Of a stretch of 47,075 nucleotides of DNA, positions 26,470 through 32,711 are shown in pieces (position 1 is the stretch's first letter; every line of letters starts with the position of its first letter). The stretch lies in NCBI GenBank assembly GCA_001750625.1, contig MEIE01000005.1:1-47075 (forward strand), read 5' to 3'. Below the pieces are notes generated by a model. It was given only the letters and a program-made list of their open reading frames with translations. It had not been told where the DNA came from and made no database searches. The translations under genes and the position numbers were made by a program. Source of the DNA: Candidatus Amphirhobacter heronislandensis. Lineage in GTDB: Bacteria > Pseudomonadota > Gammaproteobacteria > Tethybacterales > Tethybacteraceae.

Positions 26470-28920
26470 ATGCAGGACAAATACGACGCCAAGGCGGTCG
26501 AGCAGGCCGTCCGGCGGCGCTGGGAGGAGCGCGGCGCCTTCGCCGTCAAGGACGACGACCCCCGGCCGAAGTACTACAGCCTGTGCATGTGGCCCTACCC
26601 CTCGGGCGACCTGCACGTCGGGCATCTGCGCAACTACTCGATCGGCGACGTCTGGGCGCGCCACAAGCGCATGCAGGGCTTCAACGTCCTGCAGCCGATG
26701 GGCTGGGACGCCTTCGGCAAGGACGCCGAGCTCAAGGCCCGCAAGGAAGGAATCCACCCGGCCGCCTGGGTGGAGTCGAACACCGCGAACATGCGCCGCG
26801 AGCTCAGGGAGCTGGGCTACATGGTCGACTGGAGCCGCGAGCTGGCGACCTGCAACCCGAAGTACTACCGCTGGGAACAGCACCTGTTCCTGCGGATGTG
26901 GGAGAAGGACCTGGTCTACTACAGCCCGACCAAGGTGCTGTGGGACAAGGCCACCGGCACGGTGGTGGCGCGCCGCGACGTCGACGACGGCAAGGTGGCG
27001 CGGCAGGACGTCGAGGTCAGGGAGTTCCCGGCCTACCAGATGCGCCTGCGCCGCTACGGCGAGGAGCTGCTGGCGGGCCTGGCGAAGATCGCCTGGCCGG
27101 AGAAGATCGTCAAGGACCAGCAGTACCTGATCGGCCGCAGCGAGGGCATGAGCATCAGGTTCGCGCTGGAAGCCCCCGCCGCCGGCCTCGAGGAGATCGA
27201 GGTCTACACGACTCGCCCGGACACCCTGATGGGCGTGACCTACATGGCGGTCCACGCCAGCCACCCGCTGGCCGCGGCGGCCGCCGAACGCGACCCGAAG
27301 ATAAAGGAGTTCTGCGAGCAGGCCCTGCAGATCCTGCCGATCGACGCCGGCAACGCCGACAGCGAGAAGAACGGCGTCGCGCTCGACGTCCGCGTCCTCA
27401 ACCCGGTCTCGGGCGAGCCGGTCCCGGTGTGGGTGGCCGACTACGTCATCGACGACTACGGCAGCGGCGCGCTGATGGGCGTGCCGGCCCACGACGAGCG
27501 CGACTTCAGCTTCGCCCGCAAGTACGGCATCCCGATCGTCCGCGTCAACGCCCTGCCCGGCGCCGACCCGGCGGCGCCGGTCGAGCAGGCCGAGGTCGCC
27601 AAGGGCGTCGCGGTCAACAGCGGCCCGCTGGACGGCCTCGACCTCGCCGGCTGCGTCGCGAAGCTCGAGGAGCTGCTGGGCCCGAAAGGCAAGGCGCGGC
27701 GCGACCACAACATGAGCCTGCGCGACTGGCCGATCAACCGGCAGATGTACTGGGGCACGCCGATTCCGATCATCAAGTGCGCCAAGTGCGGCCTGGTGCC
27801 GGTGCCCGACGAGGACCTGCCGGTGGAGCTGCCGCTGGACGTCGACTTCCTCAAAGAAGGCCTCGCCTCCCACCCCGAGTTCGTCAACGCCAAGTGCCCC
27901 AAATGCGGCGCGGACGCGCAGCGCGAATGCGACACCATGGACACCTTCGTCAACTCCGCCTGGTACTACGCCCGCTTCGCCTGCCGCGACGCGGCGGACG
28001 AGATGGTCGCGGCGCGGGCCGCGCCCTGGCTGCCCTGCGACCACTACTTCGGCGGCGACGAGCACGCCCAGGGCCATCTGGTCTACGCGCGCTTCATCCA
28101 CAAGGTGATGCGCGACCTGAAGATCCTGCCGCCGGAGTCCGGCGACGAGCCCTTCGCGGCGCTGCTGTGCCAGGGCATGGTCCTCGGCAGCGACCGCAAG
28201 AAGATGTCCAAGTCGCAGGACAACACCGTGATGGCCAAGGACATCCTCGAGCGCTACGGCGCCGACACCGCGCGCATGTACATCATCGGCATCGGCAATC
28301 CCAAGGACGCCTACCCCTGGAACGAGGAGCACGTCCGCGACCACGCCCTGTTCCTCGAGGCGCTGTGGACCCTCGCCCGCGAGCGCCGCGAACAGGTCGC
28401 CGCCGGCGCGGACGCCGAGCCGGCGGCGGCGAACGGCCTCGCGCTCAAGCGGCTGCAGGCGGCGATCGACCGCAACCTCAAGGAGCAGCGCTTCAACAAC
28501 CTGGTCTTCGGCGGCATCCACTCCATCCGCAACCTGGTCCGCGACAACCCCGAGGACGCGGGCCTGCAGCATCAGGGCTTCGCCGCGCTGCTCAAGACGC
28601 TCAACCTGATCGCGCCGCACGTCGCCGAGGAATTGTGGGCCGGGCTCGGCTACGAGGGCCTGCTGATTGACGCCTCCTGGTGGGAGCCGATCGCGGCGGC
28701 CGAGCTGCAGGGCGACGAGCAGCTGTACGTCGTCCAGGTCAACGGCCGCAAGCGCGACGAGCTGACGGTCGCCGCCGGCCTCGGCGACGAGGAGGTGATC
28801 GCGGCCGCGCGCGCCTGCGCCAACGTCGCCCGCCACCTCGAGGGCAAGCAGGTCGCCCAGGCCAAGGTCGTGCGCAAGCCCGGCGGCCACGGCATCGTCT
28901 TCTTCGTCGCCAAGGGATGA
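26470..28920 (+). CDS. leuS: leucyl-tRNA synthetase (divergent, catalytic motifs intact)
   Basis: MWPYPSGDLHVGH, GWDAFG, TTRPDT and GVPAHDERD editing site, DTMDTF, KMSKS, VVQVNG. Confidence 0.9.
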   Translation: MQDKYDAKAVEQAVRRRWEERGAFAVKDDDPRPKYYSLCMWPYPSGDLHVGHLRNYSIGDVWARHKRMQGFNVLQPMGWDAFGKDAELKARKEGIHPAAWVESNTANMRRELRELGYMVDWSRELATCNPKYYRWEQHLFLRMWEKDLVYYSPTKVLWDKATGTVVARRDVDDGKVARQDVEVREFPAYQMRLRRYGEELLAGLAKIAWPEKIVKDQQYLIGRSEGMSIRFALEAPAAGLEEIEVYTTRPDTLMGVTYMAVHASHPLAAAAAERDPKIKEFCEQALQILPIDAGNADSEKNGVALDVRVLNPVSGEPVPVWVADYVIDDYGSGALMGVPAHDERDFSFARKYGIPIVRVNALPGADPAAPVEQAEVAKGVAVNSGPLDGLDLAGCVAKLEELLGPKGKARRDHNMSLRDWPINRQMYWGTPIPIIKCAKCGLVPVPDEDLPVELPLDVDFLKEGLASHPEFVNAKCPKCGADAQRECDTMDTFVNSAWYYARFACRDAADEMVAARAAPWLPCDHYFGGDEHAQGHLVYARFIHKVMRDLKILPPESGDEPFAALLCQGMVLGSDRKKMSKSQDNTVMAKDILERYGADTARMYIIGIGNPKDAYPWNEEHVRDHALFLEALWTLARERREQVAAGADAEPAAANGLALKRLQAAIDRNLKEQRFNNLVFGGIHSIRNLVRDNPEDAGLQHQGFAALLKTLNLIAPHVAEELWAGLGYEGLLIDASWWEPIAAAELQGDEQLYVVQVNGRKRDELTVAAGLGDEEVIAAARACANVARHLEGKQVAQAKVVRKPGGHGIVFFVAKG

Positions 28921-31900: not shown

Positions 31901-32711
31901 ACTGGCGCGGCTGCTGGACGCGGTCGAGCTCAGGAGGCTGCGCGAGGAGGCGCGGCCGCGGCCGCCATTGCTGCGCTTCTTGCCGCCGGCGCGGATGGAC
32001 CGGCTGTGCGGCTTCATCGACGAAAGCAAGATGGACCGGCTGGTCAACCACCTCGACCCCGAGCGCATGGAGCTGCTGCTCGGCTTCACCGGCGCGCTGC
32101 GCGACCTGTTCGCGCGCAAGGACGCGGTCATCCGCGCCGGCGCGCGCCCGGACCCCGCCGATCCGCGCCGCGACGAGCTGCGGCGCGTCCTGCAGGCGCT
32201 CGGCTCCTGCTACGGCCTGGACCGGCGCCACGGCGTCCCCGAGCCGCAGCGCGCGCTGCCGCGCCTGCGCGAGCTCGCCGCGCTGCTCGAGACCGCATGC
32301 GACCCGGCCGACGCCGCGGACGCGGGTTTCGCCCGCGAGGCGGCGCGCGCCCTGCTGCTAGCGGCGCACCCCCTGCTCCCGGGCCTGACGGCCGAGCTGT
32401 GGGCCGCGGCCGGCTTCAAGGGCCAGCCGCTCGACGCGCCCTGGCCGCAGGTCGCCGCGCGCAAGGGCAAAGCGCGGGCGCGGCAAACCTGCATCATCCA
32501 GGAAAACGGCGCCAAGCGGCTCGTCACCGAGCACGAGGCCGGCCTGGCCGCGGCGCAGGCCAAGCGGCTGGCGCGGCGGGAGATGGCAAGATACGTCCAT
32601 GACCGCGGCTACCCGAGCTACCCGCGGCCGGGCGAGCGCATCCTCCGGACCGAGCACGTCGAGCGGCCGCACGAGACGGTGATCAACTTCGTCCTGGGGC
32701 CGGCGCGATGA
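28917..32711 (+). CDS. LeuRS paralog lacking catalytic motifs, with an internal repeat insertion of about 430 aa
   Basis: Colinear with LeuRS (SWDSFG, TSRPDT, GTG..GIPGHD, CxxC pairs, EHA..H, YGAD); HIGH reads NAGS and KMSKS reads PMAPG; open frame of 1264 codons; ATGA overlaps with both neighbours. Confidence 0.85.
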   Translation: MSASGVRCRAMPLSLSEELNAGSCRSLLLSDVIARLRRMQGERVEPGASWDSFGAGVHIAAKNEGLAPQTYVRRTIAAHRSALERLDLLLDPGAMLDTSDPAHVKWIQELFVLLWRERPATLNEAKAHSHAYWDPGTKSNLALKQIVNGRGFFSGMLIEIREASSYEIPVSVELGERLLAGLERLVGWDDFVKSMQRESVGLEDGLRMSFGLFDPAHRRLEPLEIFTSRPDTLLGTTFIAVAADHPLARRIAHDSAAVRAFREEVMRPEYAYQRLGDDKSRDGVELGVYAVNPVNGDHIPVWATNFVVAGYGTGAALGIPGHDLRNHHFALRHNLPIRRVAVEDGADPTAPINSPYVHKQGRAVNSGALDAAINRRKSRLRREGNDGGGASLRAKQDWDRGVAEEVIAFLAERGVDATPATMARLRGWKISQQDCWGYPVPLVHCEACGTVPVPAAELPLMPPKYAEGKELLSDYPAFIACRCPRCGGKAERDADTLSSYFDAAVQHLAAGGKNMTWRGKAKARPVDYYCCGVEHATNHLLTARVIQRLLAQAGRLAGAAEPFAALLCQGTVLNYGLPMAPGYGNAVSVASLLDAYGADLLRLYVATAADPRHPLHWDESRLLALQGVIDGKDLAALRRGRLRGLKADKVANMLSPRELRRLREGLLGPEEYGLLLRDRLPAARLRKVKKIIGVSELARLREGMFSAAQLRRLRKGELTPAEQAAAAAEFDALELRRLRDGLLERHEFAALLRGELPAKRLGQVQRHWPAALLAKLRASGADPADAAAVAELQEKILTPLELVDALRQEQRLAAERKARTVLRDADVQRLRGGLLDRGEWKRLRQGKLAGAKMKAARELAGEDGLARMRGGLLDEDEFAALLAGKLPAARRARAAKLVGEAALRRLRAARGALARLPLLEKIMPAERLFGTLAAGEPDAGLRRRLLAVLDAKELASLRQAAAALPADGWVRLTAFVDERRMARLCGFVPAAKENKLARLLDAVELRRLREEARPRPPLLRFLPPARMDRLCGFIDESKMDRLVNHLDPERMELLLGFTGALRDLFARKDAVIRAGARPDPADPRRDELRRVLQALGSCYGLDRRHGVPEPQRALPRLRELAALLETACDPADAADAGFAREAARALLLAAHPLLPGLTAELWAAAGFKGQPLDAPWPQVAARKGKARARQTCIIQENGAKRLVTEHEAGLAAAQAKRLARREMARYVHDRGYPSYPRPGERILRTEHVERPHETVINFVLGPAR
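30790..32085 (+). repeat. protein-level tandem repeats inside the LeuRS paralog (about six 38-aa units plus 12-aa units)
   Basis: Units begin LREGLL, LREGMF, LRDGLL, LRGGLL, MRGGLL at 38-aa spacing; later FVDERRMARLCG, FLPPARMDRLCG, FIDESKMDRLVN, HLDPERMELLLG. Confidence 0.8.

Follow-up and report, generated by a model that had tools for sequence, protein, structure and literature searches.

A tandem pair of leucyl-tRNA synthetase-like genes, one of them a predicted non-catalytic paralog with a helical repeat array

The locus and its neighbours

The window – the whole stretch of 47,075 nucleotides of Candidatus Amphirhobacter heronislandensis DNA that was analysed – carries two consecutive genes resembling leucyl-tRNA synthetase (LeuRS), both on the + strand. 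The bacterium has a small genome, and its named relatives are sponge symbionts. Read directly, the junctions are ATGA overlaps at 28917 and 32708: the ATG of copy 2 (28917-28919) lies over the TGA of copy 1 (28918-28920), and the ATG of the next gene (32708-32710) over the TGA of copy 2 (32709-32711). An earlier description made from the letters of the window, henceforth the sequence-only reading, had listed these two frames and these two overlaps, and both were found again at the same positions. The overlaps are present in genomes G000 and G001.

Copy 1 (26470..28920, + strand) is leuS, presumably the working leucyl-tRNA synthetase, scoring 750 bits against the TIGR00396 cut-off of 548. Its frame (26464-28920, + strand) gives 818 residues from the GTG at 26464 and 816 from the ATG at 26470; HVGH, KMSKS, TTRPDT and HDERD are all intact. 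At the level of sequence, copy 1 is itself unusually diverged. It has changed at 57 of the 218 positions that are invariant in 16 single LeuRS, its stem branch in the tree measures 0.95, and the copy-1 scores (750-778 bits) lie some 250 bits below the 1017 bits of the single LeuRS of G002. It is acidic (net charge -17), the pI of single LeuRS and copy 1 ranging from 5.4 to 6.8.

Upstream of copy 1, an AT-rich gap holds a sigma-70-like promoter match (TTGAAA-16-TATTAT, 10/12 matches; 26330..26357, + strand), the single such site found in 26200-36900, where 0.3 would be expected; it is a consensus match only. A defence island lies upstream of the pair. Downstream, the operon leuS-lptE-holA-proA announced by the sequence-only reading stands as to holA (DNA polymerase III delta; 33157..34170, + strand; TIGR01128, 109 bits for a cut-off of 80) and proA (glutamate-5-semialdehyde dehydrogenase; 34193..35407, + strand; NF001221, 494 bits). 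For lptE the support is weaker: the 150-residue lipoprotein in that position (32708..33160, + strand; lipobox LLAGC) had no Pfam match of its own, and its G004 ortholog resembles LptE only below the cut-off (E 0.014; 16.5 bits, cut-off 23). The start of proA is uncertain, its frame being open already from 34040.

Motif losses, retained scaffold and repeat insert of copy 2

Copy 2 (28917..32711, + strand; 1264 aa) aligns with copy 1 over 615 residues at 33% identity (E 1e-100), and scores 337 bits with TIGR00396, under the cut-off of 548, over model positions 41-570 only. Its N-terminus is shorter than that of copy 1 by about 29 residues. The position of PYPSG reads PLSLS (aa 12-16), that of HIGH LNAGS (aa 19-23; 28971..28985, + strand), that of SRQRYWG SQQDCWG (aa 431-437), and that of KMSKS PMAPG (aa 578-582; 30648..30662, + strand), within a conserved copy-2 motif, NYGLPM. 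Four cysteines of zinc type are kept (C445, C448, C483, C486). These replacements, the N-terminal loss and the cysteine pairs had all been noticed before, and each was re-read as described.

The view that copy 2 is a non-canonical paralog devoid of adenylation motifs gains from comparison with its relatives: KMSKS is absent from all 13 copy-2 sequences that cover the site, NYGLPM standing in its place (invariant in 9/9 aligned sequences), and of the 218 positions at which the 16 single LeuRS all agree, 119 differ in copy 2. Substitutions also affect PYPSG, R424/R426 and the DTF-ESSWY block. Among pocket positions, D80 is Asp or Glu, and E534 and H539 have for the most part been preserved. HIGH and the N-terminus have been lost in the window's genus, but not generally: H-x-G-H is kept in three of nine lineages (HLGH in G004, HVGH in G003/P0007, HMGH in P0012) and lost in the other six, a distribution consistent with relaxed constraint. 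Class I synthetases need HIGH and KMSKS for adenylate formation. Copy 2 might of course be a leucyl-tRNA synthetase with motifs of its own, as the retained fold and the three H-x-G-H lineages would allow; we regard this as very unlikely, considering the loss of KMSKS in every sequence, the changes in PYPSG, R424/R426 and DTF-ESSWY, and the fact that all five copy-2 proteins scored, at 337-448 bits, fall under the LeuRS cut-off.

The body of the enzyme is nevertheless there: copy 2 keeps the LeuRS fold, the zinc cysteines, the frame of the CP1 editing domain and the C-terminal domain. An AF2 model of residues 1-640 (pLDDT 82, pTM 0.79) superposes on LeuRS structures with TM values up to 0.81. 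The anticodon-binding helices and C-terminal domain (aa 1062-1264; 32100..32708, + strand) give a sub-cut-off match to Anticodon_1 (E 0.0024), a BLASTP match to the C-terminus of copy 1 (E 2e-04) and, from the model, a Foldseek match to LeuRS chains (E 5e-04); four invariant residues of the C-terminal domain (Q, N, G, N) are still in place. The likeness to bacterial LeuS (TIGR00396) thus extends from the fold through CP1 and the four cysteines to these helices and this domain; the differences are the sub-cut-off score, the missing KMSKS, PYPSG and, here, HIGH, an Asn at the editing Asp, and a length of 1264 residues as against about 815, with a 442-residue repeat insert and a basic insert of some 30 residues after CP1.

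The larger insert (about 442-446 residues, aa 616-1061; 30762..32099, + strand) is basic and all-helical, and sits between the catalytic and anticodon-binding domains; it is found neither in copy 1 nor in the 16 single LeuRS compared. Its net charge is +27 and its pI 10.8, and each of the seven lineages tested has a basic insert (+6 to +27, pI 9.1-10.8). The AF2 model consists of short helices with pLDDT mostly between 73 and 91; a fold search of the PDB with this model found no match except to the LeuRS C-terminal part. A profile HMM built solely from units of G001 and G004, then run on the window's insert, reveals 38-residue, three-helix units, five strong and one weak: three are consecutive (aa 654-767; 30876..31217, + strand; i-E 3.5e-12, 2.8e-11 and 6.3e-14) and two follow further on (aa 822-897; 31380..31607, + strand; i-E 1.4e-12 and 9.7e-11), while none of 50 shuffled inserts gave i-E < 0.01. 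Once gained, the insert has stayed in register across four genera. This array, the most distinctive feature of copy 2, is absent from the sequence-only reading. A short helical repeat array built into a synthetase recalls the WHEP domains of metazoan Glu-ProRS, tandem helix-turn-helix repeats that make RNA and protein contacts; those occur in eukaryotes, where they link two enzymes, whereas the copy-2 repeats show no sequence similarity to them, a Pfam scan of the window's insert having returned no match, WHEP included.

Duplication, distribution and selection

Copies 1 and 2 are sisters within the family in the tree (SH-aLRT 98), and the alternative grouping is rejected by an AU test (p-AU 0.012), with a group chosen after inspection of the tree; the sister branches are long (0.95 and 2.05), and long-branch attraction may contribute to their grouping. 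Tree and test together support the duplication in situ put forward previously: both copies derive from the family's single LeuRS through a local tandem duplication of leuS. The stretch EPFAALLCQG, cited earlier to this effect, does occur in both copies; alone, it is no evidence of duplication because it is near-conserved in single-copy LeuRS (EPFTSLLCQG in G002).

A search of relatives, as the sequence-only reading had advised, found copy 2 in four of the five genomes of family f1 but in none of the 14 from elsewhere in the order (4/19 in total). Full-length orthologs exist in G001 (58% identity) and G004 (39%), and that of G003 is split over two overlapping contigs. G002, of the same family, has no copy 2, so that at least one lineage can do without it. 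An open frame alone says little at 70-77% GC, and the same stretch has an antisense ORF of 1101 residues (28926-32231). We take the + frame to be the gene because of its homology, its GC3 of 0.96 and its conservation in relatives of lower GC: copy-2 loci span 50-71% GC, and the frame is open at 60% (G001) and 50% (G004), as well as in P0010, apparently AT-rich as judged by amino-acid make-up.

Comparing G000 with G001 (NG86), the dN/dS of copy 2 is about 0.30 overall and 0.21-0.35 by region, next to 0.23 for copy 1, 0.40 for proA, 0.41 for holA and 0.76 for the lptE-like gene, all rough values given that dS is near saturation (1.1) and that GC differs. The ratio, another check advised earlier, is therefore not near 1, and by these comparisons copy 2 is a real gene under purifying selection. 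It might have been seen as a decaying pseudogene, open merely through GC-richness, in view of the long chance frames that 72-78% GC permits – witness the antisense ORF – and of Tethybacterales genomes that the portion of the source drawn on here describes as reduced and, in one case, pseudogene-rich (PMC8546597). The frame at the 50% GC locus of G004 and in P0010, the in-register insert, the conserved replacement motifs and the low dN/dS contradict this explanation, which we find scarcely credible.

Possible roles and known counterparts

We propose the following scenario. In the ancestor of one small-genome family of Gammaproteobacteria, leuS was duplicated in tandem. Copy 2 would then have lost leucine activation and tRNA charging, because the KMSKS loop, PYPSG, the DTF-ESSWY-type pocket and, in the window's genus, HIGH are gone. 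It has retained those parts by which LeuRS holds tRNA(Leu) – fold, zinc cysteines, CP1 frame and C-terminal domain – and has gained the strongly basic repeat array where the catalytic domain meets the anticodon-binding domain. Made along with copy 1 by translational coupling at the ATGA, it may hold, sense or deliver tRNA(Leu), the array perhaps adding contacts to RNA or to a partner. That copy 2 is a selected, non-catalytic paralog binding tRNA(Leu) or another RNA has, in our judgement, an even chance of being right; at the more general level its function is probably RNA or partner binding, not synthetase action. The pseudo-enzyme of the sequence-only reading is in this manner partly supported.

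The CP1 editing domain (aa 200-372; 29514..30032, + strand; PF13603, E 1e-41) might tell another story. It keeps TSRPDT, H322, D323 and R325 (in G002 numbering, T252, H341, D342 and R344 are kept), with T248 uniformly replaced by Ser, and the key editing Asp (D345 in G002) has become Asn at residue 326 (nt 29892-29894), a change that the earlier description did not mention. The Asn is found in eight of nine copy-2 lineages, G003/P0007 retaining Asp. Copy 2 could accordingly be an enzyme through CP1 only, a trans-acting tRNA(Leu) deacylase or hydrolase of altered specificity. CP1 is its most constrained region (dN/dS 0.21), a constraint that would suit a catalytic role as well as mere binding; the replacements are uniform, unlike random decay, and a fixed Asn together with the conserved NYGLPM could mean new chemistry instead of none. 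With Asn in this place, the site would be fit for substrates that lack a charged alpha-amino group; a hydroxy-acyl tRNA or one with a blocked N would be an example. Yet in E. coli LeuRS this Asp reportedly anchors the substrate amino group, its loss abolishing post-transfer editing; moreover the change is not universal and copy 1 has its own intact editing site, and we hold such an enzyme to be unlikely, if worth bearing in mind.

The divergence of copy 1 invites the thought that the two copies have become interdependent, with losses split between them and copy 2 acting as partner or regulator in a two-protein LeuRS. Copy 2 has the ancestral residue at 15 of the 57 positions changed in copy 1 (R416, S423, M218 and N809 for example), the ATGA suggests co-production, and an acidic copy 1 faces a basic insert. 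Chance could give 15 complementary positions out of 218, however, and copy 1 alone passes the LeuRS model with every catalytic and editing motif; bacterial LeuRS being a monomer, there is no inherited interface to favour a heterodimer. We see this arrangement as distinctly improbable.

To our knowledge, the synthetase copies that confer resistance are active enzymes, unlike the predicted state of copy 2. This bears on a further proposal, that of a decoy protecting a natural-product-rich host from a LeuRS inhibitor, be it an adenylate mimic or an editing-site tRNA trap. The AgnB2 LeuRS structure is among the fold matches, the pockets are partly retained, and extra synthetase copies are, as a general principle stated in the excerpt cited, often resistance genes (PMC5388404). 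No biosynthetic cluster was seen adjoining the pair, its neighbours being the lptE-like gene, holA, proA and the upstream defence island, and the repeat array would be left unexplained; a decoy seems to us a long shot.

The preferred reading, a non-catalytic RNA-binding paralog, would make copy 2 a synthetase-like pseudo-enzyme of an already known kind, here with a repeat array. One such pseudo-enzyme is the HisRS-like domain of GCN2. HisZ is listed among synthetase-like paralogs in the part of a review drawn on here (PMC9437257). By analogy with both, a synthetase body may have been kept to bind uncharged tRNA or some ligand, in regulation and not in charging; they belong to another synthetase class and family, and copy 2 has no attached partner enzyme or kinase domain. 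Closer at hand, LeuRS-I of Sulfolobaceae is likewise a second LeuRS, and according to the same part of the review it binds tRNA(Leu) without aminoacylation and is needed for best growth (Weitzel et al., 2020, via PMC9437257). As described there, it is of archaeal type, still makes leucyl-adenylate, has a disrupted CP1 and an acidic C-terminal domain, whereas copy 2 is of bacterial type and without the adenylation motifs, with its CP1 frame preserved and a basic array of repeats added. The duplicated NmLeuRS2 of halobacteria charges with much lower activity (PMC4005665) and preserves its affinity for tRNA(Leu) (PMC9437257); unlike copy 2, it is still active and is chimeric, with a bacterial N-terminal region and archaeal tRNA-binding domains, and the portions of these two sources considered here report no repeat insert for it.

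As to the repeats themselves, the SHOCT domain (PF09851), for which its authors considered nucleic-acid binding in the section cited (PMC3581485), offers a weak resemblance: a short helical unit with the pattern L-x-x-L-x-x-G-hh-x-x-x-E-F. SHOCT, however, is about 28 residues long and C-terminal, while the copy-2 unit has 38 residues and three helices, and is internal and in tandem. The window's own insert gave no match to the SHOCT profile; the G004 insert reached 24 bits (Pfam cut-off 27), and 4 of 21 single units matched at E < 1. Among non-LeuRS proteins, one profile match (P0015) was judged by eye to carry such repeats.

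Two genes in the leuS slot

Two LeuRS-like reading frames follow one another on the forward strand: copy 1, which is leuS and presumably encodes the working enzyme (26464-28920), and copy 2, a paralog of 1264 residues (28917-32711). ATGA overlaps join copy 1 to copy 2 at 28917 and copy 2 to the next gene at 32708, a single promoter-like site lies upstream of copy 1 (26330-26357), and a scan gave no convincing terminator on the + strand as far as the end of proA. Behind copy 2 follows the gene of a 150-residue lipoprotein, in the lptE position, and after it come holA and proA. 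The sequence-only reading saw here a leuS-lptE-holA-proA operon. Family models bear out holA and proA, while lptE is a weak assignment: the lipoprotein has a lipobox, and the LptE model is matched solely by its ortholog in G004 (another genome of the same family, f1), under the cut-off. A fused or frameshifted single gene was rejected, each frame having its own start and stop, and both G001, of the same genus, and G004 having two genes as well.

The source genome, G000, is an assembly of 1.6 Mb in 239 contigs, 87.6% complete. Aragorn finds 47 tRNAs in it, among them four ordinary tRNA-Leu (taa, gag, tag, caa) with nothing odd about them; tRNA-Leu(cag) was not found by this program, which may be a gap, as the assembly is incomplete. 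An antisense gene opposite copy 2 (28926-32231, 1101 aa) was rejected as a GC artefact for which we found no homology evidence. Another antisense frame, of 840 residues, stands opposite copy 1 (26368-28890, - strand), and such frames opposite both copies are what 97% GC at third codon positions typically produces, not genes. Directly upstream of leuS, GC falls to 0.44-0.60 between 21000 and 26400, against ~0.70 in the flanks, in a stretch that resembles an acquired defence island. Encoded there are a GmrSD-type restriction endonuclease (21085-22791, +), a 360-residue frame with no Pfam match (23797-24879, -) and an AAA_15/AAA_21 ATPase (24988-26352, -); at the high-GC edge of the island sits a frame of the uracil-DNA glycosylase superfamily (19995-21032, +; PF03167, E 1e-28). 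In G001 a 453-residue frame adjoins leuS at the equivalent divergent position.

With TIGR00396, the equivalog model of bacterial LeuRS (curated cut-off 548.4 bits), copy 1 of the window reaches 750 bits, and its HVGH, KMSKS, TTRPDT and HDERD motifs are intact. Copy 1 proteins score 750-778 bits on this model, whereas the single LeuRS of G002, a further f1 genome, reaches 1017. Sixteen single LeuRS of the class share 218 invariant alignment columns, and 57 of these are changed in copy 1, the changes including GLPAEN to GKDAEL, LANEQV to VARRDV and SRQRYWG to NRQMYWG. Copy 1, the working LeuRS, is itself, on this comparison, far from canonical. It is possible that the two copies have become mutually dependent. 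Bacterial LeuRS is a monomer, so that such a dependence would have no inherited interface to build upon.

Motif loss, selection and origin of copy 2

Copy 2 is 33% identical to copy 1 over 615 residues. It scores 337 bits on TIGR00396, below the cut-off and over model positions 41-570 only, and the four other copy 2 proteins that were scored also stay below (G001 374, G004 436, and the database proteins P0007 and P0012 411 and 448 bits). TIGR00395 (leuS_arch) gives only 31 bits, so that copy 2 is not of the archaeal type. Its CP1 editing domain is recognised by PF13603 at E 1e-41, and the match to the anticodon domain is weak.

The motif readings made earlier for copy 2 were all reproduced when sequence and alignments were read again. 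KMSKS is replaced in all 13 copy 2 sequences that cover the site (by PMAPG in the window), while the flanking N-Y-G-L-P-M is invariant in the nine that were aligned. HIGH is intact in three of nine copy 2 lineages, as HLGH (G004), HVGH (the f1 genome G003, grouped with P0007) and HMGH (P0012); elsewhere the position reads SLGH, QLGH, YLGQ, NINH, HAGS or, in the window, NAGS. This decay, different in each lineage, fits an early loss of the ATP-dependent step, and the pattern would fit a history in which KMSKS went first and HIGH followed in a subset of the lineages. Of the 218 invariant columns, 161 are preserved in copy 1 and 99 in copy 2 (84 in both, 77 in copy 1 only, 15 in copy 2 only, 42 in neither). 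Gone from copy 2 are PYPSG, the PAEN stretch, R424 and R426 (numbered here and below as in G002) and the DTF-ESSWY block; four Cys are retained, as are the Q/N/G and N residues in the C-terminal domain. The loss of motifs argues against adenylate formation, and copy 2 cannot plausibly activate leucine. That it is an active synthetase, as the HIGH motif still standing in a few lineages might invite one to think, is a weak proposal.

CP1 of copy 2 retains TSRPDT, H341, D342 and R344. The Asp at position 345, which we take to be the one that in E. coli LeuRS anchors the amino group of the substrate, is replaced by Asn in eight of the nine lineages and remains Asp in that of G003 and P0007. Here stands the main rival to a purely binding role, namely that this CP1 would still be catalytic, with its specificity changed.

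Between G000 and G001, dN/dS (NG86) is 0.30 for copy 2 (0.21-0.35 by region, CP1 being the lowest), 0.23 for copy 1, and 0.41, 0.40 and 0.76 for the neighbours holA, proA and the lptE-like gene, values that are rough because dS reaches 1.1 in copy 2 and the two genomes differ in GC. Protein identity between the same genomes is 58% for copy 2, the same as for the lptE-like gene and close to that of holA (63%). The frame of copy 2 stays open in loci of 71%, 60% and 50% GC. A dN/dS near 1 had been named beforehand as the sign that would speak against a maintained gene, and the rough value lies well away from it; copy 2 is, by these measures, a selected gene, and the view that it is a pseudogene is weak. 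Among four RNA runs carrying the host label, a poly-A library gave one read pair on copy 2 (31440-31716), and three runs of 35-nt reads, which are no test, gave none; the set speaks neither for nor against expression.

The GC content of the leuS locus differs across f1, even inside one genus: 50% in G004, 60% in G001, 62% in G002, 71% in G003 and ~72% in the window. In G001 (locus L019, 6418-12713) GC at third codon positions is 0.90 in copy 1 and 0.68 in copy 2, whereas in G000 both are at ~0.96 (0.96 for copy 2 in its + frame); the contrast in G001 may come from expression level or from an ongoing shift in GC.

A quick IQ-TREE search (32 LeuRS rows, 821 columns) unites copy 1 and copy 2 in one clade (SH-aLRT 98), to which the single LeuRS of G002 is sister. 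Two long branches are joined in that clade: the copy 1 stem measures 0.95 and the copy 2 stem 2.05, the median end branch being 0.37. A tree constrained to pair copy 1 with G002, copy 2 lying outside, is worse by 15 log-likelihood units (p-AU 0.012), the tested group having been chosen once the tree was known. The topology is consistent with a tandem duplication that followed the split of the G002 lineage, and, with the caveat of the long branches, it upholds the earlier claim that the duplication occurred in situ.

The basic repeat insert and a proposed role for copy 2

An AF2 model of copy 2 residues 1-640, made with a 16-row alignment (pLDDT 82, pTM 0.79), matches LeuRS chains in Foldseek at E 2e-50 with TM 0.73-0.81, indicating that the LeuRS fold is retained; the C-terminal part also matches LeuRS (E 5e-04). 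Residues 616-1061 form an insert that, in our alignments, is missing from copy 1 and from every single LeuRS. Four genera share it in register, 446-447 residues occupying 450 columns, and its length is ~442 residues in five lineages, 293 in P0010 and 172 in P0012 (both database proteins). A repeat HMM trained on units from G001 and G004 only finds in the window five strong 38-residue units (654-691, 695-726, 732-767, 822-859 and 863-896; i-E 1e-10 to 6e-14) and one further weak unit. With the same HMM, P0007 and P0008 each show five strong units, P0010 shows three and P0012 two; copy 1 and G002 have none, and 50 shuffled inserts gave nothing below i-E 0.01. At the DNA level TRF found no 114-nt tandem repeat, so that the units are old ones that have diverged.

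In the AF2 model of residues 600-1264 (pLDDT 75, pTM 0.41) each unit makes three short helices, mostly at pLDDT 73-91. No solved structure resembling the insert came out of a Foldseek search of the PDB, which gave only matches to the LeuRS C-terminus, the rest being at E > 0.4; a complex prediction with two copies of the insert scored 0.00, a verdict neither way on oligomerisation. The repeats do recall SHOCT (PF09851), a domain of no known function (PMC3581485). The G004 insert reaches 24 bits (E 3e-05), under the gathering cut-off of 27 bits, four of 21 single units match at E < 1 (best 0.0073), and the window insert has no match in Pfam, SHOCT included, at E up to 10: this is a resemblance below threshold, short of membership. 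All seven lineages tested have a basic insert (+6 to +27, pI 9.1-10.8), irrespective of GC content; acidic pI values (5.4-6.8) are found for copy 1 and the single LeuRS.

The data show that copy 2 retains the tRNA-holding body of a LeuRS and carries in addition a basic helical repeat array. Taken together with selection on the paralog and with the implausibility of leucine activation, this leads us to favour a non-catalytic role: copy 2 would be a tRNA(Leu)- or RNA-binding protein, co-produced with copy 1. As a decoy it is a weak candidate. We think it improbable, though worth stating, that the pair amounts to a divided LeuRS system or to a tRNA-sensing device of a kind new to bacteria. Copy 2 would be a stand-alone pseudo-synthetase reading the state of tRNA(Leu) through a retuned CP1 pocket and its C-terminal domain, the signal would be relayed or scaffolded by basic three-helix repeats of 38 residues, a new class of repeat, and copy 1 would have co-evolved into dependence on copy 2. 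If this were true, genome-reduced animal symbionts would have evolved a bacterial equivalent of GCN2's HisRS-like tRNA sensor.

Known LeuRS duplicates and the distribution of the pair

The review PMC9437257 names two duplicated LeuRS, LeuRS-I and LeuRS2, both archaeal and both described as having no known function. It reports that LeuRS-I of Sulfolobaceae binds tRNA(Leu) and makes the adenylate with no charging, its CP1 being disrupted and its C-terminus acidic; halobacterial LeuRS2 has low activity and retains affinity for tRNA (PMC9437257; PMC4005665). Copy 2, known here from sequence and models, is like them in kind, as a LeuRS duplicate, and unlike them in being of bacterial type, with no adenylation motifs, the CP1 frame kept and a basic repeat insert. 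Literature searches for such a pair returned no description of one, and the words leucyl, leuS and tRNA synthetase or ligase are absent from the main text of PMC8546597 and of a 2026 preprint on the Amphimedon hologenome.

Non-charging synthetase paralogs are known and few are understood. Copy 2 adds a bacterial-type case, and a clean natural experiment: the duplication can be dated, G002 being a sister lineage that retained a single canonical gene, motifs were lost stepwise, the repeat module varies in length with the lineage (172, 293, 442 aa), and the working copy is also altered at its 57 otherwise invariant positions. That an extra gene of 3.8 kb is retained in genome-reduced symbionts implies a real benefit. 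Its binding target could reveal a tRNA-dependent function outside translation, and could also give a function to a new helical repeat, possibly related to SHOCT.

When 41 genomes of the class (G000 and 40 relatives) were compared with copy 2, full-length matches came only from G000, G001 (58% identity), G004 (39%) and G003 (49% and 38% over two contigs whose ends overlap in sequence). Of the pair that the sequence-only reading proposed to look for in relatives, copy 2 is found in four of the five f1 genomes. The insert profile has the same reach, four of the 19 genomes of the order, with none of the 14 from the three other families. The fifth f1 genome, G002, has leuS, then a small ORF, then holA on a 5.3-kb contig, an arrangement from which copy 2 is truly absent at that site. 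A pattern scan of 185,579 species, one genome for each, returned only G001, G004 and G003 (a Candidatus Amphirhobacter sp., Candidatus Tethybacter castellensis and an uncultured gammaproteobacterium). PMC8546597 places Candidatus Amphirhobacter and Candidatus Tethybacter in the order Tethybacterales and describes them as sponge symbionts whose genomes are reduced.

Residues 570-1264 of copy 2, compared with 5.8 billion proteins, found at least five proteins among the 8000 candidates scored. The insert profile gave ten matches in 1.84 billion representative proteins, eight of them LeuRS-like paralogs (in part only fragments) that carry the insert at ~residue 650, and two marginal and unrelated. 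Metagenome contigs scanned with the database protein P0004, then with an alignment of the NYGLPM region, gave no matches, and the insert had no usable match in the protein atlas. The copy 2 family is rare but wider than four genomes, with at least nine lineages. In a complete genome of the same order (G012:C1:1308591-1310884) the LeuRS matches are split over four frames of 163, 279, 312 and 108 residues, which suggests that leuS is fragmented there or that the assembly contains frameshift errors.
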